The notes under the pieces are model-generated. The model did not search any database, was not told the origin of the DNA, and saw only the letters and a program-made list of their open reading frames with translations. A stretch of DNA of 61,675 bases. Source: Candidatus Stahliibacteriota bacterium (GTDB lineage Bacteria; Hydrothermota; UBA3073). Positions within the stretch are counted from its first letter, which is position 1. Every line of letters begins with the position of its first letter. This document shows positions 2,454 to 27,515 of the stretch, one piece after another. The DNA lies in the NCBI GenBank assembly GCA_030627085.1, contig DAOUSS010000001.1:1-61675 (forward strand), read 5' to 3'. A program made the translations under genes and the position numbers.

Positions 2454-2506
2454 TGAATCTGTGGTTAAGGTTTTTATAATAGCGAATAAAGGGAAAGGAG
2501 ATATAA

Positions 2507-2620
2507 GTGCTTGTATCAGCAATAGTTATGTTGATATTTGGTTGTGTTGTGCTCTATGGGGGATTGATATTCTGCCTCTATAGGGCGATCAAAGGCGGTA
2601 AAAAAGATAAGGACGTTTAG
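2507..2620 (+). CDS. candidate 37-aa single-pass membrane mini-protein
   Basis: GTG start 6 nt after aaggag (2495-2500). Product MLVSAIVMLIFGCVVLYGGLIFCLYRAIKGGKKDKDV has one TM helix and a basic tail. It is below the ORF-track length cutoff. From memory it resembles small subunits of Na+-coupled importers (MetS-like), unverified. Confidence 0.35.
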   Translation: MLVSAIVMLIFGCVVLYGGLIFCLYRAIKGGKKDKDV

Positions 2621-2848
2621 AAATAAAGTCACAGATTACACGGATTAATACATAGATAAGCACTGATATTTTAAGAGATTACCAAAATTTGCAATATTTT
2701 CAGACTTGGTAACTACCCTCTAAAAATTCTGATTTTTGGATTTTTTTGGAATAAAAATTTAGTAAAACGAGCGGTTGATAGCACAAAAAACCTTTACAGG
2801 CTTGGGTTTATCGTAATCTGCCGTTTTTTAAAAATTTCATTTTTTTCC

Positions 2849-2877
2849 TTGACAATATTATATTTTTGTGTTATATT
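2849..2877 (+). promoter_or_regulatory. sigma70-type promoter TTGACA-N17-TATATT with TGn extension
   Basis: ttgaca 2849-2854, 17-nt spacer, tg at 2869-2870, tatatt 2872-2877. About 340 nt upstream of the porin start. Confidence 0.6.
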
Positions 2878-2997
2878 GTATTTAAGTAAAGTCAGTTTTC
2901 TCTGAGGTTAACCGGGAGAAATATGAACTATGGCTTCCTTGGCGTTGGCTTATCAGAACTTCCTAATTTTGGTATAAACAGAGGGAAGTATTACAGA

Positions 2998-3043
2998 ATA
3001 CCCTCAATCCCCACGTTACACAGGATTGAGGGTATTTTTATTT
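2998..3043 (+). terminator. intrinsic-terminator-like hairpin inside the porin leader
   Basis: ataccctcaatcc (2998-3010) / ggattgagggtat (3023-3035), 13-bp stem, 12-nt loop, followed by a T-rich tract (tttttattt). Confidence 0.6.
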
Positions 3044-3216
3044 ACCCTTGCGGCTTCCCTTACGCGAGGTTTGTAAGGTTCGTTTAAGTCAGCCCTGCGT
3101 ATCTTATGATACGCAGGGTAGTCCTTAAAACACAGTATTCCACTTTCTCCTTTAGCGAATTACGCCTTCAAAAAGAGGTAGAATTTGGAAAAATGATATA
3201 AATAAAAGGAGGCGAA

Positions 3217-4254
3217 ATGAAGAGAATAGGCTTTGTGATGGTAGGAGTTATGCTATTGGGATTTTTTGCTTCGCTGCAGGCAAAACCCTTTGAAAATGCT
3301 GCCCAGTCCTATATTCAGCAGGAAATCAGGTACACCCAGGATAAATTGACCTTTAGTGTCAGGAGAATGAGATTACGTTTCACTGGCAGTTTAGCCGATG
3401 GTAAATTAGCTTATAGGCTGGAACCGGCATTTGAAAAGGATGGCAGGTCACTTGATGTGAAGTTTGCCTACGCCGATATCAAATACATGGCTCCCTATTT
3501 TAACATCAGGGTTGGTAAGTTCTGTACCCCATCCAATGTAGAGGTCTATTGGACCTGGCCACCCAAGCAACTAACAGTATGGATTAACCCCATTACAAGA
3601 AAGATTTGGGAGGTAGGCGACCTCTTTGACTATGGAGTACAGGGCAGTGGAACCTTTAAATTGGGGGCCGAGTCTAACTTGGGCTACATAGTGTCGGTAA
3701 CTAATGGCAAGGGTTCAGGAATAGCAGCAAATCCTGATGGCAAGGTTGATATTTGCGGCAGGGTTAATCTTACCCCCATTAAGGGACTACAGATAGGTGG
3801 TTGGACACAACTTGTAAATGCTTATGTTGCTGCTCTAGATTCGATAGATAAGCGCACTCTATCCGGGATAGATGTTTGGTATACAGGCTATGGACTTGAT
3901 ATCCGTGGCGGGTATGATATGGGAGATGCTGGTGATTTTGGCATAATAACGGTTGATGGAAGGACTGGAAAATACACCGGTTTCCATATTATGGGTGGTT
4001 ACAGCTTCGAGACACCTGTGGAGGCTTTTGAAATAGGCACCTTAGAAGTCCAGCCTGTTATCAATTACTCATCCTATGCTCCTGATATCGATGGAGTTGA
4101 CCCTGCTACTGTTATTACTCCTGGTGTGAACCTATACCTGGGTGAGAACCTCAAGTTTATGCTCAACTATAGGATGATCACCGACGAAGATGGAGCCTAC
4201 TTTGCATCAGATGACAATGTATTCGAGATGAGGACACAGGTACTGTTCAAATAA
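3217..4254 (+). CDS. outer-membrane porin-like beta-barrel (possibly phosphate-selective OprO/P-like)
   Basis: RBS aaaggagg, signal peptide (MLLGFFASLQA), amphipathic beta-strand periodicity throughout, C-terminal MRTQVLFK. Assignment to the OprO/P family is tentative. Confidence 0.55.
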   Translation: MKRIGFVMVGVMLLGFFASLQAKPFENAAQSYIQQEIRYTQDKLTFSVRRMRLRFTGSLADGKLAYRLEPAFEKDGRSLDVKFAYADIKYMAPYFNIRVGKFCTPSNVEVYWTWPPKQLTVWINPITRKIWEVGDLFDYGVQGSGTFKLGAESNLGYIVSVTNGKGSGIAANPDGKVDICGRVNLTPIKGLQIGGWTQLVNAYVAALDSIDKRTLSGIDVWYTGYGLDIRGGYDMGDAGDFGIITVDGRTGKYTGFHIMGGYSFETPVEAFEIGTLEVQPVINYSSYAPDIDGVDPATVITPGVNLYLGENLKFMLNYRMITDEDGAYFASDDNVFEMRTQVLFK

Positions 4255-4278
4255 GGATAGATTCTATCTATTCTTGCT

Positions 4279-4302
4279 AAAATTTGTAAGGAGGTCTTGC
4301 AG
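4279..4302. repeat. inverted-repeat arm (SD-containing) upstream of gene 4327-5235
   Basis: aaaatttgtaaggaggtcttgcag. Its reverse complement occurs at 5284-5309 and 6724-6750, and a direct copy at 5482-5508. Confidence 0.85.
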
Positions 4303-4326
4303 GTCAGGAGAAAGGAGGAGAAACAT

Positions 4327-5235
4327 ATGTTAAATAAAATCAAAATATCAAGTTTTCTGGTGATTATTGCACTGTTTTTAATGCTAATTCCCTGTGCTAT
4401 GAATGCCGGTATCCCTAGTGAATACGAGGGTGGGGTGTATTCTTACGAGTTAGCCCGAGTAATCCAGGTACCAGGAAGACAGGGAATTGCTTCGGACGGG
4501 GATTACTACTATGTCAGTTGCAGTAAGGCTCTTTATAAGTGCGATAAAAATGGAAAGATACTTTTGGCAAATAAGGAGCCATTTAAAACATTCCCCAAAG
4601 AAGCCGTGTGTAACCACATAGGAGACATAGATTACTATAATGGTGAGCTTTATATAGGTGCGGAGGAGTTCAAGGAAGGAAGAGGTTTTAACATACAGAT
4701 TGCAATATACGATGCCAAGAGGTTAAAGTATAAACGTTCCATACCTTTTGATGAGAAGTCCGGACAAATAGAAGTCTGTGGAATGACTGTAGATCCTATT
4801 CGTAAGGTAGCATGGATGTCTGATTGGTGTAGTGGTAGATATCTTTATCAGTATGACCTCACGACTGGCACATATATTGGTAAATTACACTTGCAGCCGC
4901 CACCAGAGAAGCAACAAGGAGTCTATTATTATGATGGGAATCTGTTTATCACGGCAGACGATGGGGATGCTAATGACTGGGAGCATGACCATATGTACTG
5001 GGCAAATGCGAATCCCTCCGCAACCTATGCACCAGTGAAGTTAGAGAAAACATTTAGCGAATTCACCCGTACAGGCGAAATTGAAGGTATGTGCGTTGAC
5101 CCAAAGACTGGACAATTTCTAGTCCTATTCAATAGGGGAACTAAAGTTGTCGAAGGGATGCCTGTAGGTTTTTACACTGGTTATGAGAAAGAGATACACG
5201 AGTTGTACATATACAATATAACTAAGTCCCCATAA
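4327..5235 (+). CDS. secreted protein of unknown function (repetitive, possibly beta-propeller-like)
   Basis: ATG 4327 sits 8 nt after aggagg; the track start TTG 4297 lies inside the repeat. Signal peptide (FLVIIALFLMLIPCAMNA). Recurrent D-G-(D/N)-hydrophobic blade-like motifs (DGDYYYVS, YNGELYIG, YYYDGNLFITADDGD, IEGMCVDP). The fold call is inference. Confidence 0.5.
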   Translation: MLNKIKISSFLVIIALFLMLIPCAMNAGIPSEYEGGVYSYELARVIQVPGRQGIASDGDYYYVSCSKALYKCDKNGKILLANKEPFKTFPKEAVCNHIGDIDYYNGELYIGAEEFKEGRGFNIQIAIYDAKRLKYKRSIPFDEKSGQIEVCGMTVDPIRKVAWMSDWCSGRYLYQYDLTTGTYIGKLHLQPPPEKQQGVYYYDGNLFITADDGDANDWEHDHMYWANANPSATYAPVKLEKTFSEFTRTGEIEGMCVDPKTGQFLVLFNRGTKVVEGMPVGFYTGYEKEIHELYIYNITKSP

Positions 5236-5283
5236 AAGAAAGGCAACTGAGGTAACTCATTGAAGATAAGAGAAAATGTAAAG

Positions 5284-5309
5284 CTGCAAGACCTCCTTCA
5301 AAATTTGGC
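5284..5309. repeat. inverted-repeat arm (anti-SD-like) downstream of gene 4327-5235
   Basis: ctgcaagacctccttcaaaatttggc. The first 15 nt are the perfect complement of aaggaggtcttgcag. It pairs with 5482-5508 over about 26 bp with one mismatch and one bulge. Confidence 0.85.
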
Positions 5310-5389
5310 CGTTGGGTAACCGATAGATTTTTAGATATTCCCATCAAACTCTTTCTTTCTCTGTGTATCTGTGGTTAATTTTTCCTCTT

Positions 5390-5455
5390 GACGGAGCCTA
5401 CTTCACATCAGACAACGATGTGATGGAGATAAGGACACAGGTAGTGTTCAAGTAA
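5390..5455 (+). pseudogene. remnant of a porin 3' end (last 21 codons plus stop)
   Basis: Translates to DGAYFTSDNDVMEIRTQVVFK*, versus the porin C-terminus DGAYFASDDNVFEMRTQVLFK* (4189-4254). The similarity continues through the downstream spacer to 5508. Confidence 0.75.
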
Positions 5456-5481
5456 GGATAGATTCTATCTATTCTTGTCTT

Positions 5482-5508
5482 GCCAAAATTTGTAAGGAGG
5501 TCTTGCAG
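5482..5508. repeat. inverted-repeat arm (SD-containing) upstream of the metallophosphoesterase gene
   Basis: gccaaaatttgtaaggaggtcttgcag, a direct copy of 4279-4302. Confidence 0.85.
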
Positions 5509-5577
5509 TGTAATAGAGAGAAAGGGGGTAGAAAGGGTTTTAACTCGCTTTACCCTCAAGTAAAGAGGAGGATGAAA

Positions 5578-6696
5578 ATGAAAGAATCTAAAAAGCTATG
5601 GATATGCCTATTCATGATAGTTCTAATACTTCCCTGGACCGCCAATGGCTTTGAGCGGATAAAGTTTGGAGTTATTTCTGATCCTCATTTAGCTATGCCA
5701 GCAGCAGGAACAGAAGACGAGTTCAAAATGCAGCTTTCAAGTGTGGATCTAATGAAGAATGCAGTAAAAGAATTTAATAAGACCCCTGGTCTTGATTTTG
5801 TAGTTCTAACTGGCGATATAACGCTTAATGCTGAGCCCTGGAATGTAGAGATGATAAAATCTATCATGGATGGGTTAAGAGTGCCTTACTATGTTGTGTT
5901 AGGGAACCACGATATAAGTCCAGTACCTACACCACCAAAGCCTGGTGCTCCACCATCAATGGGTGCGTACATAGGTGTCACAAGATCTACTTTTGCCTGG
6001 ACTTTCCAAGGACATGGGTTCAATGGACCTGATCTTTGGTGGAGTGATGATCCGGTACCTGGTCTTCATATCATTGGTTTAGACACAAATGTCCCCGGTA
6101 TCTGGGGTGGTACTGTACCTGCAAATGAGATTGCTTGGTTAGAACATGATCTTTACGCTAATCGTGATAAGTTGACCATAGTGTTTTCTCATCATGGTTT
6201 TGTCACCTGGCATAAGGATGAAGAAAGTGCAGCGTGGAAGAACTACAATTGGTTTCCTGTTGATAACGCCGCAGAGATGAGGGCGATTTTTGAAAAGTAC
6301 CCCCAGGTTAGTTTTGTTATAAATGGACACCGCCACATCGGACAGCGCTACAAAAAAGTAAACGATGTTTACTACTTCGTTATACCTGCTGTTTCTTCAT
6401 ATCCAATGAGATACGCGGTGTTCACGCTAACGCCCGATGAACTGAGTTGGGTGTCAAAAGATATACCAATTTCTAAAAAAGTTTTGAACACGGCAAAAGC
6501 AAACTGTATCGGCGAACCTGGGGAGTGGTGGAGATGTTCAGATCATCCTAAAGGGCCGGCGGGCGACAAAAAGATGCTGGAGTTCTTTGAAGCGAAGGAA
6601 TATATGAAGGGTAAGGTCCCTGTTAGGTTCAAACCCCAGCGCTATGGAGAATTAAGAGTTCCTTCCGAGGAACTCTTGGGGGCAGTGGTTAGATAA
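5578..6696 (+). CDS. secreted calcineurin-like metallophosphoesterase
   Basis: Motifs GVISDPH, TGDIT, LGNHD, FSHHG and INGHRH. Signal peptide (LWICLFMIVLILPWTANG). ATG 5578 has better SD spacing than 5572, and the track start 5503 lies inside the repeat. Confidence 0.85.
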   Translation: MKESKKLWICLFMIVLILPWTANGFERIKFGVISDPHLAMPAAGTEDEFKMQLSSVDLMKNAVKEFNKTPGLDFVVLTGDITLNAEPWNVEMIKSIMDGLRVPYYVVLGNHDISPVPTPPKPGAPPSMGAYIGVTRSTFAWTFQGHGFNGPDLWWSDDPVPGLHIIGLDTNVPGIWGGTVPANEIAWLEHDLYANRDKLTIVFSHHGFVTWHKDEESAAWKNYNWFPVDNAAEMRAIFEKYPQVSFVINGHRHIGQRYKKVNDVYYFVIPAVSSYPMRYAVFTLTPDELSWVSKDIPISKKVLNTAKANCIGEPGEWWRCSDHPKGPAGDKKMLEFFEAKEYMKGKVPVRFKPQRYGELRVPSEELLGAVVR

Positions 6697-6723
6697 ATCT
6701 AAGTAGTTAGGAGAAATTTTAAG

Positions 6724-6750
6724 CTGCAAGACCTCCTTCAAAGTTCGGCC
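6724..6750. repeat. inverted-repeat arm (anti-SD-like) downstream of the metallophosphoesterase gene
   Basis: ctgcaagacctccttcaaagttcggcc, a near copy of 5284-5309. Confidence 0.85.
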
Positions 6751-6814
6751 ATTGGAAGTAAGAGCACCAAGGAAGAAGATTTGTTATCTCTTCTTAATTG
6801 GATAAAAAATACCT

Positions 6815-6923
6815 GGGAATTACAGCAAAGTGTCCCGTTATACCGCACTAAAATCAGAATGTCAAATAAGCAAGTGCAAATCTAAATTACGCGTATCTAA
6901 TGGGACACTTTGGTATAATTCCC
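6815..6923 (+). promoter_or_regulatory. 22-nt inverted repeat pair overlapping an extended -10 (TGgTATAAT)
   Basis: gggaattacagcaaagtgtccc (6815-6836) versus gggacactttggtataattccc (6902-6923): 20/22 complementary, with a 65-nt interior. tggtataat at 6911-6919 lies inside the right arm. Confidence 0.5.
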
Positions 6924-6971
6924 AAATTATAATAATAGGGAACAATCAAAATAAAACATAGAGGAGGCAAT

Positions 6972-7178
6972 ATGCCTACACCAACAATTTCATCTCTCCT
7001 TTATCCATATATTGTGGGGGGGGTTCTGTTTGTAATTGGTATGATACTCGTATTTAAATCGGATGTGGTTGACCTGAAGTTAAGAAGATATAGAATCATG
7101 GTCATTTGGTTAATTGCAGGGTATTTCATTTATCTTGCTATCCATTCATTTTTCTTCTTTGTAGCTCCTCGTCTTTAG
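6972..7178 (+). CDS. small two-TM membrane protein, putative accessory subunit of the SSS transporter
   Basis: Strong RBS (agaggagg). 68 aa with two hydrophobic helices. It ends 17 nt before the transporter start, an arrangement like the small subunits that precede some solute:sodium symporters. Confidence 0.55.
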   Translation: MPTPTISSLLYPYIVGGVLFVIGMILVFKSDVVDLKLRRYRIMVIWLIAGYFIYLAIHSFFFFVAPRL

Positions 7179-7195
7179 AGAAAAAGGAGGTAAAG

Positions 7196-9037
7196 ATGCA
7201 GGAGATATTGGGAACACCTTTGGATTATACGGTCATGATTGGCTACTTTGTTCTGATCGTAGCCTTTGGAACATTCTTTGCCAGATATACAAAGACTACC
7301 AAAGAATTCTTTCTGGGTGGGCAAAGATTCCCCTGGTGGATCATCTCGTTTTCATGTGTAGCTACATTAGTGGGTTCCTATAGTTTTATCAAGTACGCAT
7401 CAGTGGGGTACCTCTACGGATTCTCTTCTACAATGAGCTATATCAATGATATCTTTCTGCTGCCTATCTTCATGTTTTGCTGGTTACCCGTAATCTACTT
7501 TTCAAGAGTCTTGTCAATTCCCGAATATCTTGGGAAGAGATTCGATCCTCGAACTCGTGTAGTGGGTACGATTATTCTCATAATTTATCTTGTGGGCTAT
7601 GTGGGTATCAATCTCTACACTTTGGGTGTTGCCCTGCATACCTTAATAGGCTTGCCGGTATTCTGGGCTGCCGTTGCAGTGGCAGTATTTGCAACCATCT
7701 ATGTGGTAGCGGGTGGACAGACCGCTGTGATCTGGACAGATCTATTGCAGGCTTTTATTCTTTTGATTGCGGGCATAGGGTTATTTGTGGGGGGGATCTT
7801 TTTCTTGAGGCACTACGGTGGTTTTTGGAATCTCTTTCCAACCGGCCATAAATACGCCATGGCCTACTTCAATAAGCCGCCCAGTTTCAACTTCGTGGGT
7901 GTCTTCTGGCAAGATGCCATCGCAAATTCTTTTGCATTCTGGCTTATGAACCAGGGAATAATGATGAGATTTATGTCAGCCAAGAGCCTGCACGATTCAA
8001 GGAAGGCCGCTCTTTTCAATATCTTGGTGTTAATAATTGTGGCGTCTGTCGCCACTTCTGGTGGAGGCTGGATAGCAAGAGCTCTGGTGAGTGCCGGGCT
8101 TCTCCCTAAAACTCTCACCGGTAAAGAAGCATTTGTCAGAGCCGCCTATTTCTTATGTCGTCCGGGTGTATTTGGGTTTGTCCTCGCGGCTCTTACCGCA
8201 GCCCTTATGTCTACTGTGGATACTTTACTTAATGCCGCTTCAGCAGTATTTGTGAACGATGTCTGGCGACCTCATATAGTGAAGAAGGCTCCAGATAGGC
8301 ATTACTTGAAAGTTGCAAGGATAGCCTGTATAGCGGGGGCTATTATTGGGATTGCGCTGGTTCCCATTTATATGAGGTTTAAAACTATCTATGCTGCCCA
8401 TGGAGCATTTACCGCAACCATAACTCCACCTATGGTAGTAGCCATTGTCTTGGGTTGTACCTGGAAACGTTATACATCCAAAGCTGCTTTCTGGACCTTG
8501 TTGGGGGGGATGATCCTTATGTTTATTTCTATAAAGTATGACATCCTGTTAGCTCCATTTAGCTGTGGGATACCACGTTCTGGCTGGTTCTTCATCCGTG
8601 CCCTTTACGGATTGGTTGTCTCGGGAGTGATTGGAGTAGTTGTTACTTTATTTACAACACCCCCATTAAAGGAAAAAATCAGTGGCCTGGTTTGGAGGAC
8701 AGAGAGAGAGGGAATGATAAAATTTAAAGGTGCAGAGCCTAATGAGCGAGAAGGTAAGCAGGCTGTTCTCAGGATAAAGCAGGTAGAGCTATCTGATGAG
8801 GAAGATATCGTTAGAGTATCTCCCAAGGCTATGGAACTAATGCAAGCAAATACCGGTGATATGTTATATGTTACAGATTATAGGTGGTGGATGGGAGGAT
8901 TACATTCTACACATGCCAAGGCCGGAGATCCCATTACTGAAGAGGAGGATTTTGATAAAGTGTATGTATCTAAAGTCTTGATGGATAGAGGACGATTCAA
9001 AGAGGGTATGAAAGTAAGGGTAGAAAAGATATTTTAG
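7196..9037 (+). CDS. solute:sodium symporter (SSS/SSF) family transporter with extra C-terminal soluble domain
   Basis: RBS aaggagg, start MQEILGT. Many TM helices and the SSF signature region VAGGQTAVIWTDLLQAF. The last ~126 aa are hydrophilic. Confidence 0.85.
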   Translation: MQEILGTPLDYTVMIGYFVLIVAFGTFFARYTKTTKEFFLGGQRFPWWIISFSCVATLVGSYSFIKYASVGYLYGFSSTMSYINDIFLLPIFMFCWLPVIYFSRVLSIPEYLGKRFDPRTRVVGTIILIIYLVGYVGINLYTLGVALHTLIGLPVFWAAVAVAVFATIYVVAGGQTAVIWTDLLQAFILLIAGIGLFVGGIFFLRHYGGFWNLFPTGHKYAMAYFNKPPSFNFVGVFWQDAIANSFAFWLMNQGIMMRFMSAKSLHDSRKAALFNILVLIIVASVATSGGGWIARALVSAGLLPKTLTGKEAFVRAAYFLCRPGVFGFVLAALTAALMSTVDTLLNAASAVFVNDVWRPHIVKKAPDRHYLKVARIACIAGAIIGIALVPIYMRFKTIYAAHGAFTATITPPMVVAIVLGCTWKRYTSKAAFWTLLGGMILMFISIKYDILLAPFSCGIPRSGWFFIRALYGLVVSGVIGVVVTLFTTPPLKEKISGLVWRTEREGMIKFKGAEPNEREGKQAVLRIKQVELSDEEDIVRVSPKAMELMQANTGDMLYVTDYRWWMGGLHSTHAKAGDPITEEEDFDKVYVSKVLMDRGRFKEGMKVRVEKIF

Positions 9038-9057
9038 AAAAGAAAATCTATTTTGTG

Positions 9058-9954
9058 ATGCTTACTCAATTAGAATGTGCTCCCTGTATTATAGATGATT
9101 TAGTTGGAGCAATAAAGTTACTGAACTTGCCTCGCGAGATACAAAAGAAAATACTCGCTGAGGGGTTAGATTACTTAAGCAAAAATTTCAATCTTCAAAC
9201 CATCCCATCCTATCATATCACCCAGGTACATCGTATCTTAAAAAGAATTTCGGGAATAGAGGTCCCATTCAAAGACCTACGCAGTAACTGTAACAAAGTA
9301 GGGACCGAGATAGCCAATTACCTATCTCAGGAATCCAAAAAGCTTTCAGATTTTGATGGATTCTATTATTTAGCAAAATGGGCAATTGCTGGCAACTTGT
9401 TGGATTTCCGTACTGTGGGAACTGGTTATGGGTTAGCGGTTTCTCGTATTAGAGAGAAGCTCAAAAATAATGTTCAAGAGGGCTTGAGATTGGATTATAT
9501 CGATAGATTATATCAACTGCTGAAGGAAGGAAAAAGAAAGGTTTTATATATTTTAGATAATGTAGGCGAAATTGCTATTGATAAGTTGCTGATCAAAAAG
9601 ATAGTAGAATTTGGTAATTCAGTTACTACTACCGTGCGTGGTGGGCCTATTACAAGCGATGCTACTCTTAATGATGCCGAACAGGTAAATTTGAGTGAGT
9701 CTGGAGCCCGAATTATTATAGCAGGACCTGACACCCTGGGTATCTCCTGGAAGGAGAAATCCAGAGATTTGACTGATGCCTTAAATAGGGCAGATATTAT
9801 TATTACCAAGGGACAGGCAAATTTTTATGTTTTCTCTGAATATAAGAAAGAAATTCCAGGAAATATATTCTGCCTCTTTACCACAAAGTGTGACCCGGTC
9901 TCCAGCATTTTTGGTGTCAAAGGCAAGATTAATCTTGCAGTCCAGTTAAAATAA
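9058..9954 (+). CDS. DUF89 / ARMT1-like damage-control phosphatase family protein
   Basis: YILDNVGEIAIDKLL (DNxGxE...D metal motif) and IITKGQANF motif. Typical length of about 300 aa. Confidence 0.7.
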   Translation: MLTQLECAPCIIDDLVGAIKLLNLPREIQKKILAEGLDYLSKNFNLQTIPSYHITQVHRILKRISGIEVPFKDLRSNCNKVGTEIANYLSQESKKLSDFDGFYYLAKWAIAGNLLDFRTVGTGYGLAVSRIREKLKNNVQEGLRLDYIDRLYQLLKEGKRKVLYILDNVGEIAIDKLLIKKIVEFGNSVTTTVRGGPITSDATLNDAEQVNLSESGARIIIAGPDTLGISWKEKSRDLTDALNRADIIITKGQANFYVFSEYKKEIPGNIFCLFTTKCDPVSSIFGVKGKINLAVQLK

Positions 9955-25607: not shown

Positions 25608-27014
25608 ATGAATCCAAGGACTTACATCTTGGTTTGTGTTCTATTTTCTGTATTCTTTTTATGGAATGAAGCGGTCCCTTTCGAGGGAAATGAAGCGGTT
25701 ATCACTCTCCCGGAGGCAATTGAGATGGCTCTGGAGCACAACGAGGGTATCCTCGGGGCAAGGGATGCGGTGAGAGAGGCGGAGGCGAGCGTGGTTATTG
25801 CAAGGTCAGGATTTCTGCCAAAAATAAGTGCTCAAGTGAGCTACACCAGACTTGCAGAACTTCCCGCAATTGAAATGGAGGCACCGAAATATGGCATGAT
25901 GGAGGTACCTGTATTTGGTCCCATGGGAGATACAATAGGTTTCACTGTTGTGCCCGGTATCGTGGGTACAGATATTATGAAGTACCAGATGGGAGAGACC
26001 AAAAATTATGTGGGAAGGACATCACTACAGCAGCCCCTCTTTACCTGGGGAAAGATTTCAAATGGCTATCAAATCGCGAATTTGAATGTAGAAGCATCAC
26101 AAGAAGATTACAGAAAACAGAAAAATGAATTGGTTTTCAATGTCACAAAATCATTCTATGGTATTCTTGTAATGAGAGAGCTTGTAAAATTGACTGAAGA
26201 GGCGTACAAACAGACCGCAAATCACATGGATGCCGTGGAAAAAAGATATAAGGCGGGAGTTGCATCGAACTTCGACCTCTTAAGAGCAAAGGTTCAACTC
26301 AAGAATATGGAACCTCAGGTGATCAAGGTCAAAAATGGTTTAGAGCTCGCGAAAACCGGATTCAAGGCACTCCTTGGTCTACCGCAAGACACAATAATCA
26401 ACTTGGAAGGAGAGCTGGATGTAGATGTGGGGACACAATATATTGTGCCCCTACAGGAGAGTATAGATTATGCTAAGTCAAACCGTCCTGAGGTGAAGGC
26501 TCTGGAATTAAGAAAAGAGATGGCGGGCAAGGCACTTGCAATTGCAAAGAAGGCAAACTGGCCCAACATAGCCCTCACCGCAAATTATGACTACAAGAAA
26601 CCAGTTTACTTCAAGAATGAGTGGGGGACAGATTGGAATATCACAGTTGCTTTACAGATGCCTATATTTACAGGGTTTGGAAATCTTGGAAAAACACGAC
26701 AGGCAAAGTATCAGTTCTCCCAGGCAGAACATGGACTCAATCTACTAAAGGAAGGCATAGAAATGGAGGTAAGGGCATCTTACCTCCAGCTTGAGGAGGC
26801 AAAAAAAATTGTAGAATCTCAAAAAGAAAATATTGCACAGGCAGAAGAAGCGCTTTCAATTGTGGAAGAGAGATATAAACAGGGTCTTGCTACTTCGTTG
26901 GAAGTAATGGATACACAGCTTGCCGTGACGAAAGCAAAGACGAACTGGCTCCAGTCACTATCAGATTACTTAATAGCGAAGGCAAAATTAGAAAAAGCAA
27001 TAGGGAAACAGTAA
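25608..27014 (+). CDS. TolC-family outer-membrane efflux protein
   Basis: Signal peptide, LPEAIEMALEHNEGILGA start of the OEP repeat, and a second repeat (IDYAKSNRPEVKAL). ATG 25608 follows gggggag. Confidence 0.85.
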   Translation: MNPRTYILVCVLFSVFFLWNEAVPFEGNEAVITLPEAIEMALEHNEGILGARDAVREAEASVVIARSGFLPKISAQVSYTRLAELPAIEMEAPKYGMMEVPVFGPMGDTIGFTVVPGIVGTDIMKYQMGETKNYVGRTSLQQPLFTWGKISNGYQIANLNVEASQEDYRKQKNELVFNVTKSFYGILVMRELVKLTEEAYKQTANHMDAVEKRYKAGVASNFDLLRAKVQLKNMEPQVIKVKNGLELAKTGFKALLGLPQDTIINLEGELDVDVGTQYIVPLQESIDYAKSNRPEVKALELRKEMAGKALAIAKKANWPNIALTANYDYKKPVYFKNEWGTDWNITVALQMPIFTGFGNLGKTRQAKYQFSQAEHGLNLLKEGIEMEVRASYLQLEEAKKIVESQKENIAQAEEALSIVEERYKQGLATSLEVMDTQLAVTKAKTNWLQSLSDYLIAKAKLEKAIGKQ

Positions 27015-27039
27015 GGAGTAAACAGTAAGGAGTAAGCAG
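27009..27039. repeat. heptamer array (agtaagg-type), 5' arm of the stem enclosing the four-helix-bundle ORF
   Basis: cagtaaggagtaaacagtaaggagtaagcag. Its reverse complement matches 27437-27453 perfectly over 17 nt and partially beyond. It overlaps the tolC stop codon. Confidence 0.85.
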
Positions 27040-27043
27040 AGGA

Positions 27044-27433
27044 ATGACTATGGCACATAGCAGGGAATACAAAGGGTTTCGGGATTTGAAGGCATACCAG
27101 TTGGCATACAAATTGGCGATGAAGATTTTTGAAGAGACCAAGCATTTCCCCGTCGAGGAGAAATACGGCTTAACGAGTCAAATCAGAAGGTCATCACGCT
27201 CTGTTCTTGCTAATATTGCAGAAGCGTGGAAGAAAAGAATTTACAAGAAGGCATTTGTAAATAAATTGATAGATAGCTATGGAGAGGCAGGGGAAACAGA
27301 AGTATGGTTAGATATGTCTCTTGATAGTGGTTATCTGGGTAAAGAAAAACATAAATACTTTCTTAACGGGTATGAGGAAGTAGGCAAAATGTTATATGGA
27401 ATGATTAGTCAACCAGAGAAATTTTGTTCCTGA
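27044..27433 (+). CDS. four-helix-bundle protein ('23S rRNA intervening-sequence protein' family)
   Basis: FRDLKAYQLAYKLAMKIFEETKHFP..EKYGLTSQIRRSSRSVLANIAEAW is the hallmark N-terminus of this family. About 125 aa. The start could be ATG 27050. Confidence 0.85.
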   Translation: MTMAHSREYKGFRDLKAYQLAYKLAMKIFEETKHFPVEEKYGLTSQIRRSSRSVLANIAEAWKKRIYKKAFVNKLIDSYGEAGETEVWLDMSLDSGYLGKEKHKYFLNGYEEVGKMLYGMISQPEKFCS

Positions 27434-27436
27434 TAC

Positions 27437-27500
27437 TGCTTACTCCTTACTGCCTACTGCTTACTGCCTACTGCTTACTGCCTACTTCTTACTGCTTACT
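27437..27500. repeat. heptamer array (tactgcy x ~9), 3' arm of the stem enclosing the four-helix-bundle ORF
   Basis: ctgcttactccttactgcctactgcttactgcctactgcttactgcctacttcttactgcttact, with a period of 7. Confidence 0.85.
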
Positions 27501-27515
27501 AAAATAAGGGGGAAG

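Follow-up and report, generated by a model that had tools for sequence, protein, structure and literature searches.

Why should two adjacent genes for secreted proteins of unrelated families each be preceded by one and the same Shine-Dalgarno (SD)-like sequence and followed, beyond their stop codons, by its complement? The question is raised by a 61,675-nucleotide (nt) stretch of the genome of a Candidatus Stahliibacteriota bacterium (contig DAOUSS010000001.1, positions 1 to 61,675; hereafter the window), where genes termed here A and B are so bracketed within an operon headed by a porin gene. Comparison among related loci shows, to judge from their base-pair substitutions, that the pairing of the two arms is maintained by RNA-level selection and that it brackets whole translation units rather than ribosome-binding sites (RBSs). 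As to what the pairing does, we infer, with confidence somewhat better than even, a portable 5′/3′ RNA clamp, i.e. an RNase III-type processing or stability element within a polycistronic mRNA. The features concerned are as follows.

4279 to 4302, plus strand: 5′ arm of cassette A (aaaatttgtAAGGAGGTCTTGCAG), core AAGGAGGTCTTGCAG at 4288 to 4302, an SD-like decoy (sequence reading, repeat finder, covariation)
4327 to 5235, plus strand: gene A, a secreted beta-propeller protein (predicted structure, 982 homologues)
5284 to 5310, plus strand: 3′ arm of cassette A (CTGCAAGACCTCCTTcaaaatttggcc), core CTGCAAGACCTCCTT at 5284 to 5298, outer helix reaching 5306
5284 to 5333, plus strand: the same 3′ arm with the conserved A-type 3′ extension ggccgttgggtaaccgatagattttt (homology boundaries at 5322 to 5333)
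5482 to 5508, plus strand: 5′ arm of cassette B (gccaaaatttgtAAGGAGGTCTTGCAG), core at 5494 to 5508 (sequence reading, repeat finder, covariation)
5578 to 6696, plus strand: gene B, a secreted calcineurin-like metallophosphoesterase (Pfam PF00149, E 4.7e-14)
6724 to 6750, plus strand: 3′ arm of cassette B (CTGCAAGACCTCCTTcaaagttcggcc), core at 6724 to 6738, outer flank of A type

Direct reading confirms the four arms, their positions and their perfectly complementary 15-nt core as a first-pass annotation of this DNA had described them, with AAGGAGGTCTTGCAG upstream, and its complement downstream, of both gene A and gene B. The core occurs in the window in four perfect copies, two per strand, all at arm sites; the next-best matches carry three mismatches, and at up to three mismatches there are seven matches, a count attained in none of 100 dinucleotide shuffles. 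All four inverted arm combinations were recovered by a repeat finder, together with three direct repeats (4189 to 4276 against 5390 to 5477, 86%; 4267 to 4302 against 5473 to 5508, 92%; 5274 to 5315 against 6714 to 6755, 88%), and the earlier observation that the porin 3′ end and its spacer are duplicated at 5390 to 5508 is borne out by the same means. No further copies exist in the window beyond the four, and exact-pattern scans of two public collections matched, chance matches apart, only this kind of locus. A dispersed repeat is accordingly rejected, as far as those collections and the window, the part of the source genome covered, can tell: the window has its four copies at one locus, and each of the three contigs from a GTDB-wide scan is a locus of the same type. 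Rfam gives nothing in 2500 to 7300 even at E up to 1, its sole match in the whole window being one tRNA.

The background level of such bracketing was gauged from the longest perfect complement between the 120 nt upstream and the 120 nt downstream of each of 49 open reading frames (ORFs) in the window. This replaced z-scores from whole-flank RNAduplex calculations, in which shuffled long unconstrained duplexes also score well. Forty-six of the ORFs have 5–10 base pairs (bp), A and B have 15 bp each, and the only other one above 10 bp is 27044 to 27433, with 17 bp, which is dealt with below. For 151 mechanically called ORFs of related loci the flank complement is at most 12 bp outside the A and B cassettes.

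Relatives were gathered by exact-pattern scans (one genome per GTDB species; metagenomes) and by protein searches with contig look-ups, and are designated L001, L002 and so on. They provide ten distinct arm pairs with 17 nt per arm, giving 170 cells, 93.5% of which are standard pairs, as against 43–54% when the 3′ partner is slid by one to three columns. Of the 140 cells that the inner 14 pairs comprise, 137 are paired. Compensatory changes on both sides are present in 6 of the 17 pairs, and in none of 500 column shuffles is the level reached that the real alignment shows for pairing, for double-change counts or for covariation score. Individual compensations are as follows: G-C has become A-U in L012 (TTGCAG/CTGCAA to TTACAG/(A)TGTAA) and in L022 (AAGGAGG/CCTCCTT to AAGAGG/CCTCTTT), A-U has become G-C in L016 (GGAGG/CCTCC to GGGGG/CCCC), and L036 has several (GTAAGG/CCTTAC to AGGAGG/CCTCCT). 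One-sided changes, as read on the sense strand, comprise ten G·U (at least eight separate events) and not a single A·C. Since a site acting at the DNA level would be expected to give G·T and A·C equally often, the asymmetry argues for RNA of the sense strand, and the comparison as a whole speaks for a duplex of sense-strand RNA under selection and against a DNA repeat; that the arms are well described as a selected sense-RNA clamp is held with high confidence. The long-range 5′-3′ stem, one of several possibilities originally floated, thus has strong support from covariation, from the strand-specific G·U excess and from full-length folds, and the pairing is kept in relatives, its loss there having been named beforehand as the outcome that would tell against it. 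The role suggested along with it, that such stems would release or protect mRNAs of single genes, is plausible.

The arm duplexes have calculated energies of -27 to -37 kcal/mol. Cassettes folded at full length (1.06–2.44 kb) give mean pair probabilities of 0.82–1.0 for the core helix in nine of nine, and the helix is in the minimum-energy structure of eight of nine, the bulged arm of L036 being unsuited to that check. The core is of 15–17 bp, reaching ~23–25 bp in some lineages, and closes a loop of 1.0–2.3 kb that contains the coding sequence; of the two cores, 5′ ..GUAAGGAGGUCUUGCAG pairs with 3′ CUGCAAGACCUCCUUAC... With two cassettes in tandem, as in the window, pairing of each with its own arm (-44.0 and -38.4 kcal/mol) is nearly isoenergetic with a nested alternative (d1:u2, -41.4; u1:d2, -35.1 kcal/mol), and own-arm pairing is favoured by the order of transcription. 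The proposal that arms 5284 to 5310 and 5482 to 5508 can pair with each other is upheld by the duplex of -41.4 kcal/mol, though its description as having one mismatch and one bulge was slightly too clean, the make-up being 15 bp and 6 bp separated by a 2-nt mismatch, with 3 bp beyond a 1-nt bulge. Separately, an extra outer helix is possible in A-type cassettes between UCUAUC at 4263 to 4268 and GAUAGA at 5322 to 5327, in competition with a local hairpin at the porin stop codon.

Does the SD-like sequence of the 5′ arm serve initiation? That the arms are not the RBSs of the genes follows from the separate SD that each gene has further downstream, 5–8 nt before its ATG; from the end of the 5′ core to the start codon there are 23–24 nt for A and 68–103 nt for B. 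A start at the TTG within the arm (ORFs 4297 and 5503) was considered and rejected, the frame being out of register or interrupted, or the codon TTA, in most relatives, and UAAGGAGGU in the 5′ arm is without a conserved start codon after it. The AAGGAGG of the 5′ arm is therefore not the RBS of the translated gene, and the RBS-sequestering switch that had been entertained is unsupported as stated, with each gene's own SD outside the helix and the in-arm TTG not kept in relatives.

A related alternative is translational repression, which we judge unlikely. The 3′ arm would be a repressor of the type known from icaR, its CCUCCUU blocking the cistron to which it belongs either via the true RBS or via an upstream standby or enhancer SD, with RNase III cleavage secondary. 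AAGGAGG/CCUCCUU does sit inside the conserved helix; the 3′ arm contains ACCUCCUU, the 5′ arm has a 9-nt perfect SD, and the latter is purine-rich and SD-like in all variants (GGAGG, GGGGG, AGAGG). There is precedent both in Staphylococcus aureus icaR, where pairing of the 3′ untranslated region (UTR) with the SD stops initiation and makes an RNase III site of the 5′UTR-3′UTR duplex (PMC3868564), and in Bacillus subtilis, where anti-SD-like octamers repress from hundreds of nucleotides off (PMC12697547). However, the true RBSs are outside the helix, their pairing with the 3′ arm is worth only -12 to -20 kcal/mol in contrast to -38 to -44 kcal/mol for that of the 3′ arm with the 5′ arm, and the helix ends 23–103 nt upstream of the start codon, so that direct occlusion is unlikely for gene B. 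Like icaR, the present cassettes have an intramolecular 5′UTR-3′UTR duplex with SD and anti-SD-like sequence; whereas icaR engages its functional RBS through the short motif UCCCCUG, here it is a decoy upstream of the real site that is paired, the helix is 15–25 bp, and the module is common to unrelated genes and several loci.

A second alternative takes the arms to be DNA, and its assessment depends on how the cassettes are laid out elsewhere. The scan of GTDB species gave three contigs. L001, a metagenome-assembled genome (MAG) of candidate division WOR-3, has porin end, 5′ arm, A, 3′ arm and symporter region without B; L003 has porin end, 5′ arm, B, 3′ arm and symporter without A; and L002, whose B is divergent, has the 5′ arm alone, its 3′ end being replaced. 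L002 (JAOUGB010000578.1) and L003 (JAOUJR010000426.1) are contigs of 2.1–2.5 kb binned as Desulfobacteraceae and Nitrospirota MAGs. L003 is probably mis-binned, since it is syntenic with the window and 85–88% identical to it; L002 resembles the window only in gene B (77.5%) and the upstream spacer, and its bin label is less clearly wrong. The metagenome scan added one real locus, L008 (the matches L005, L006, L009 and L010 being unrelated chance matches), and protein searches with look-ups added L011, L012 and L036 for B. The order of genes in these is porin, B, three cation-efflux/Band_7 genes, small membrane protein, symporter, ARMT1. The arms of L036, 2.3 kb apart, have a pair of metallophosphoesterase genes between them, and show a one-nucleotide bulge in addition to the several compensations. 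The presence of gene A among relatives, on which a comparison had been recommended, is thus polymorphic: A is without B in L001, and B without A in L003, L008, L011 and L012. At least four other neighbourhoods (L013, L014, L016, L022) harbour A together with both of its arms, beside a peptidase M14 gene, between HD and GAF genes, or upstream of an ABC transporter with a HAD hydrolase. The orientation of gene relative to arms is the same in 12 of 12 cassettes.

Three of these relatives carry features worth recording in their own right. The 5′ arm of L012 is tandemly duplicated at 1506 to 1545 (AAGGAGGTCTTACAG, with AGGGAGGTTTTACAG 25 nt further on); each copy has the A by which the altered 3′ arm is compensated, and either can pair with the single 3′ arm. 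L028 has another, 12-bp perfect complement, CGCCGGAAACGA/TCGTTTCCGGCG at 2807 to 2818 and 3926 to 3937, ~190 nt upstream of its gene A start and 10 nt after the stop, which may be a replacement clamp or chance. The A reading frame of L014 is apparently disrupted.

From such layouts it could be supposed that the arms are the terminal inverted repeats or recombination sites of a mobile DNA cassette (a non-autonomous transposon, or integron-like, or invertible), with a recombinase reading both ends and the pairing irrelevant. Gene A and its arms do occur in several unrelated neighbourhoods with homology stopping near the arms: blastn of the window against A cassettes in foreign contexts gives homology from ~4254/4263 to 5322/5333, i.e. 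from ~25–34 nt before the 5′ core to ~24–35 nt after the 3′ core, and limits just outside the arms mean that the arms travel with gene A. The same end modules are on two unrelated genes, close relatives show presence/absence polymorphism, and in both the window and L003 the B 3′ arm has a chimeric outer flank, of A type. Yet we regard this explanation as improbable. One-sided changes on the sense strand that are all G·U and never A·C are not what a protein-read DNA site predicts; no recombinase, integrase or transposase is among 47 window ORFs scanned; target-site duplications are not visible at cassette borders; inverted orientation is seen in 0 of 12 cassettes; copies of the motif are not scattered through the window or through a WOR-3 representative genome; and the A-only and B-only junctions fall within direct repeats of 42–114 nt, as ordinary homologous recombination gives. 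Its particular forms were also tried and rejected. For an integron cassette there is no compact attC (an imperfect palindrome of ~57–141 bp with R″/R′ core sites, GTTRRRY), the arms being ~1 kb apart and not locally paired; single-cassette loci have one arm per side and, by reading, no GTTRRRY at the conserved arm ends. For a transposon with terminal inverted repeats, or a miniature inverted-repeat element, the arms have the right look, but target-site duplication, dispersed copies and a window transposase (which could be elsewhere in the genome) are lacking. For an inverton, there is only one orientation among the 12 cassettes.

The junctions themselves involve the porin gene and a remnant of it.

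3217 to 4254, plus strand: porin of the phosphate-selective O/P family, first cistron (Pfam PF07396, E 3.7e-11)
4252 to 4276, plus strand: AU-rich local hairpin starting from the stop codon of the porin (AAGGAUAGAuucUAUCUAUUCUU; predicted for every WOR-3-type locus co-folded)
5390 to 5455, plus strand: porin 3′-end remnant, the last 21 codons and stop, followed by a copy of the spacer and repeating 4189 to 4302 (repeat finder)

L001 matches the window over 4211 to 5310 and then from 6710 onward, the overlap being within the 42-nt 3′ arm repeat, and L003 matches 3972 to 4302 and then 5390 to 6770, the overlap being the 114-nt repeat of porin end, spacer and 5′ arm. As these junctions read, the three WOR-3 haplotypes are interrelated by recombination within direct repeats. 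The porin fragment is 81–87% identical to every sampled porin end, the window's own included, and such equal divergence indicates that it is old or imported and not a fresh duplication. Identity to L008 is mosaic (porin 93%, B 75%, symporter 93%). The outer flank of the B 3′ arm is of A type (ggccattgg...) in the window and L003; in L008, L011 and L012 the B 3′ arm leads directly into the next gene. Our reading of these alignments is of repeated homologous exchange with the shared untranslated modules as handles, presumably a consequence of the modules and not their purpose. The idea that the repeats are scars of modular duplication therefore holds in part: the direct repeats are recombination joints, with junctions inside them, but the porin fragment is old or foreign, and the inverted arms are a conserved functional feature and no scar. 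That the repeats are mere non-functional hitch-hikers of a porin-plus-enzyme duplication, persisting as young or gene-converted copies, is very improbable despite the porin 3′ end and spacer being duplicated along with the 5′ arm and the frequent recombination that mosaic identity among relatives implies, since an inverted arm is beyond the reach of tandem duplication, the arms flank gene A also without a porin present and they persist, with compensatory changes, where coding DNA is only 69–80% identical, covariation in the aligned arms largely refuting it.

In the RNA clamp that we favour, each enzyme cistron would carry a portable pair of untranslated-region modules whose cores pair in sense RNA. 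By length and form the helix would be a substrate for RNase III. A perfect or near-perfect duplex of 15–25 bp closing a kilobase loop is a classical one, as in rRNA precursors and 23S intervening sequences (IVSs) (PMC4990558; PMC6582327), and in B. subtilis RNase III cuts many long-range intramolecular mRNA duplexes, its targets being paired positions in duplexes spanning >100 nt (PMC11780869). The duplexes of B. subtilis are idiosyncratic to each mRNA, and they are not described as conserved portable modules around cistrons. Most likely, the enzyme cistron would be marked for endonucleolytic separation from the porin message and the downstream messages, and/or its two ends would be held in duplex, with the outcome that its stability and output could be set independently of the rest of the operon. 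Cleavage would separate the porin message, ending in the hairpin at 4252 to 4276, from the enzyme cistrons, and would leave these with base-paired ends. That hairpin, which in L003 has (by eye) a G·U to A-U change, is in the folding model a possible 3′ protection of the processed porin mRNA. The 5′ arm when unpaired, as a non-initiating SD, may bind 30S subunits in the manner of a STAB-SD stabiliser, and the 3′ arm, as a timer, could close the SD-like site when the whole cistron has been transcribed, a role akin to those in icaR (PMC3868564) and hbs mRNA (PMC5737220) and to the long-range anti-SD effects of PMC12697547. These modules, being repeated, would in addition be short homology patches through which cassettes are gained, lost and swapped, and cassette exchange through them would account for the A-only and B-only relatives and the porin fragment.

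Several points weigh against the clamp as a processing element. The sample of ten arm pairs is small, the sequences are related and their alignment is anchored on the helix, with one bulged C of L036 removed to hold register. DNA-level homogenisation can also yield compensation in inverted repeats, though it leaves the G·U excess unexplained. The helix of L008, L011 and L012 is only 17 bp, under the ~20–22 bp of usual RNase III preference, and RNase III itself is not among the 47 window ORFs scanned. Homologues of A are found without arms (a degenerate 5′ remnant in L015 and L028, none in L030), and the clamp is thus dispensable for the protein.

To our knowledge very few bacterial 5′UTR-3′UTR interactions are known (icaR, hbs and the hok type), each of a single gene. 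In the hok family the fbi element at the 3′ end reportedly pairs with tac at the 5′ end, and the full-length mRNA is said, in work of the Gerdes laboratory, to be locked in a stable, translationally quiet form until processing. Activated by 3′ trimming, the hok mRNAs are ~400 nt long and code for toxins. End-to-end pairing is the likeness, and the difference is that no toxin or antisense partner is evident here. The STAB-SD of Bacillus thuringiensis cry3A mRNA acts alone, by 30S binding, without a complementary 3′ partner. With it the present arms share a strong 5′UTR SD (UAAGGAGGU) that does not initiate the downstream gene; a stabilising role of that sort for the 5′ arm is, by analogy, a conjecture. 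In B. subtilis hbs mRNA a 14-bp helix joining the 5′ UTR with the 3′ UTR modulates endonuclease access and mRNA stability (PMC5737220). That long-range helix is of similar length, but hbs is monocistronic and species-specific and involves RNase Y, and it is without an SD/anti-SD core or cassette behaviour.

A further close parallel, in architecture, is to intervening sequences and rRNA precursors, where an ORF-containing segment of 0.4–3 kb is likewise enclosed by complementary ends in a long-range stem. The IVS of Coxiella burnetii 23S rRNA has a 28-bp terminal stem and heptamer repeats, encodes an IVS-family protein and is excised by RNase III, as has been proven, and such segments, cut from a longer transcript, are regarded as selfish or transposed modules (PMC4990558). 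The window cassettes have the stable long-range terminal stem (duplex energies, nine folds, covariation); they are not in an rRNA gene, the host being a protein-coding mRNA operon. Other differences are that the enclosed genes encode ordinary secreted enzymes with good RBSs, that the core is SD/anti-SD and that cleavage here is putative. Compared with the named families by their defining features, the clamp may be filed among bacterial long-range 5′/3′ RNA pairings with RNase III-type bracketing stems.

The present case has covariation support, and its helix spans whole cistrons of 1–2.3 kb, is common to two unrelated enzyme families and moves with its cargo between gene neighbourhoods. If the arms are processing or stability signals, they show members of the uncultivated WOR-3 setting the output of single genes inside an operon, with inserted genes insulated at the RNA level. 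Two arms with natural compensatory mutants make for a compact and testable model, and complementarity of upstream and downstream flanks is a sequence-independent search rule that has already flagged a third bracketed gene in the window. The boldest extension is a new class of portable mRNA clamp cassette, horizontally exchanged with its cargo and cut from, or insulated within, whatever operon transcript hosts it, an mRNA counterpart of rRNA intervening sequences, with its SD/anti-SD core a ribosome-loading switch dependent on completion of transcription and its stems doubling as homology handles among phosphorus-scavenging loci; taken whole, this is a speculation to which we give only a small chance.

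27009 to 27501, plus strand: ORF of the 23S_rRNA_IVP family with arms (flank-complement test, family match, fold)

The ORF of this third element, 27044 to 27433, specifies 129 amino acids of the 23S rRNA intervening-sequence protein family (PF05635/bAvd-like), and, within an RND efflux operon, separates the OEP gene (outer membrane) from the HlyD gene (membrane fusion). The purine-rich 5′ arm CAGTAAGGAGTAAACAGTAAGGAGTAAGCAG is at 27009 to 27039 and its pyrimidine-rich 3′ arm, with ~9 TACTGCT-like heptamers, at 27434 to 27501; the arms are complementary at 90% over 31 nt and form a terminal stem in the full fold, z = -5.1. Their polarity is that of the A and B arms, with an SD-like purine-rich 5′ arm ending in GCAG and a pyrimidine-rich 3′ arm starting with CTGC. 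With the Coxiella IVS the element has in common the protein family, heptamer repeats and a (predicted) terminal stem, and by that likeness it looks like an IVS-type element in mRNA instead of rRNA. The RNase III-type reading of the A and B arms draws in part on the family of this third cistron, members of which are excised by RNase III as IVSs (PMC4990558).

How are A and B transcribed and what do they encode? The remaining features of the operon are these.

2849 to 2877, plus strand: sigma-70-type promoter (TTGACA, 17 nt, TATATT with TG; promoter scan, conserved in L011 and L012)
6972 to 7178, plus strand: small membrane protein
7196 to 9037, plus strand: sodium:solute symporter of the SSF family
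9055 to 9954, plus strand: ARMT1-like phosphatase

The promoter is the only strong one within 2600 to 7300 and is probably that of the operon, upstream of the porin leader. No intrinsic terminators after A or B were called in the 2600 to 7300 scan, and with one strong promoter the simplest expectation, we infer, is that porin, A and B are on one polycistronic transcript. A terminator role for a GUUGG-GUAA-CCGAU hairpin in the A-type extension was rejected, the hairpin being too weak and not conserved in L014, as was a promoter of the cassette's own, TGcTAAAAT overlapping the 5′ flank, which is absent from the scan calls and not conserved in L013 and L016. Beyond 9954 the plus strand continues with a DAO/BFD, Pyr_redox_2 and DUF1667 trio, and what remains of the window is chromosome of housekeeping kind, with gyrB, trpS, era, gatB, eno and pyrB among its genes.

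Both proteins have hydrophobic, signal-peptide-like N-termini. Gene A is without a match in Pfam and NCBIfam searches; its AlphaFold model (predicted local distance difference test, pLDDT, 88) is a confidently predicted beta-propeller behind an N-terminal hydrophobic helix at residues 2–19, for which PDB sequence and fold searches return generic beta-propellers only. Exact-protein look-ups of A and B gave no match, and a plasmid search for A no relevant one. The A family is large and conserved, with 982 homologues, and elsewhere adjoins genes of phosphorus acquisition, homologues being next to an ABC transporter and HAD hydrolase (L014, 4717 to 5409; L022) or an alkaline phosphatase (L030, 4697 to 6313); such neighbours suggest that the family belongs to phosphate-starvation responses.

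Some other RNA and DNA structures of the operon are of note. The porin leader, following the strong promoter, has a structured RNA of ~165 nt that ends in a 16-bp intrinsic terminator (2994 to 3045, fold z = -3.66), and across the window, L011 and L012 its part at 3050 to 3200, including a hairpin at 3101 to 3133, is conserved to a higher degree than coding DNA. The leader has no Rfam match at E up to 1; for 2849 to 3210 the candidate identities are a riboswitch, an attenuator or a small RNA, belonging to a phosphorus-related operon. In the interval from the 5′ arm to the RBS of gene B the loci conserve a hairpin, GGGGGTAGAAAGG...CTTTTTACCCCC, whose differences from one locus to another look compensatory (window, 5509 to 5577; L008, 1030 to 1097; L002, minus strand, ~1160 to 1220); gene B may have in it a second regulatory element of its own. 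Further downstream, ahead of the small membrane protein and symporter genes, there is a palindrome at 6814 to 6924, with a 57-nt loop and 27-nt arms complementary at 89%; L001 shares it and L003 lacks precisely this segment, which resembles a small palindromic insertion element.

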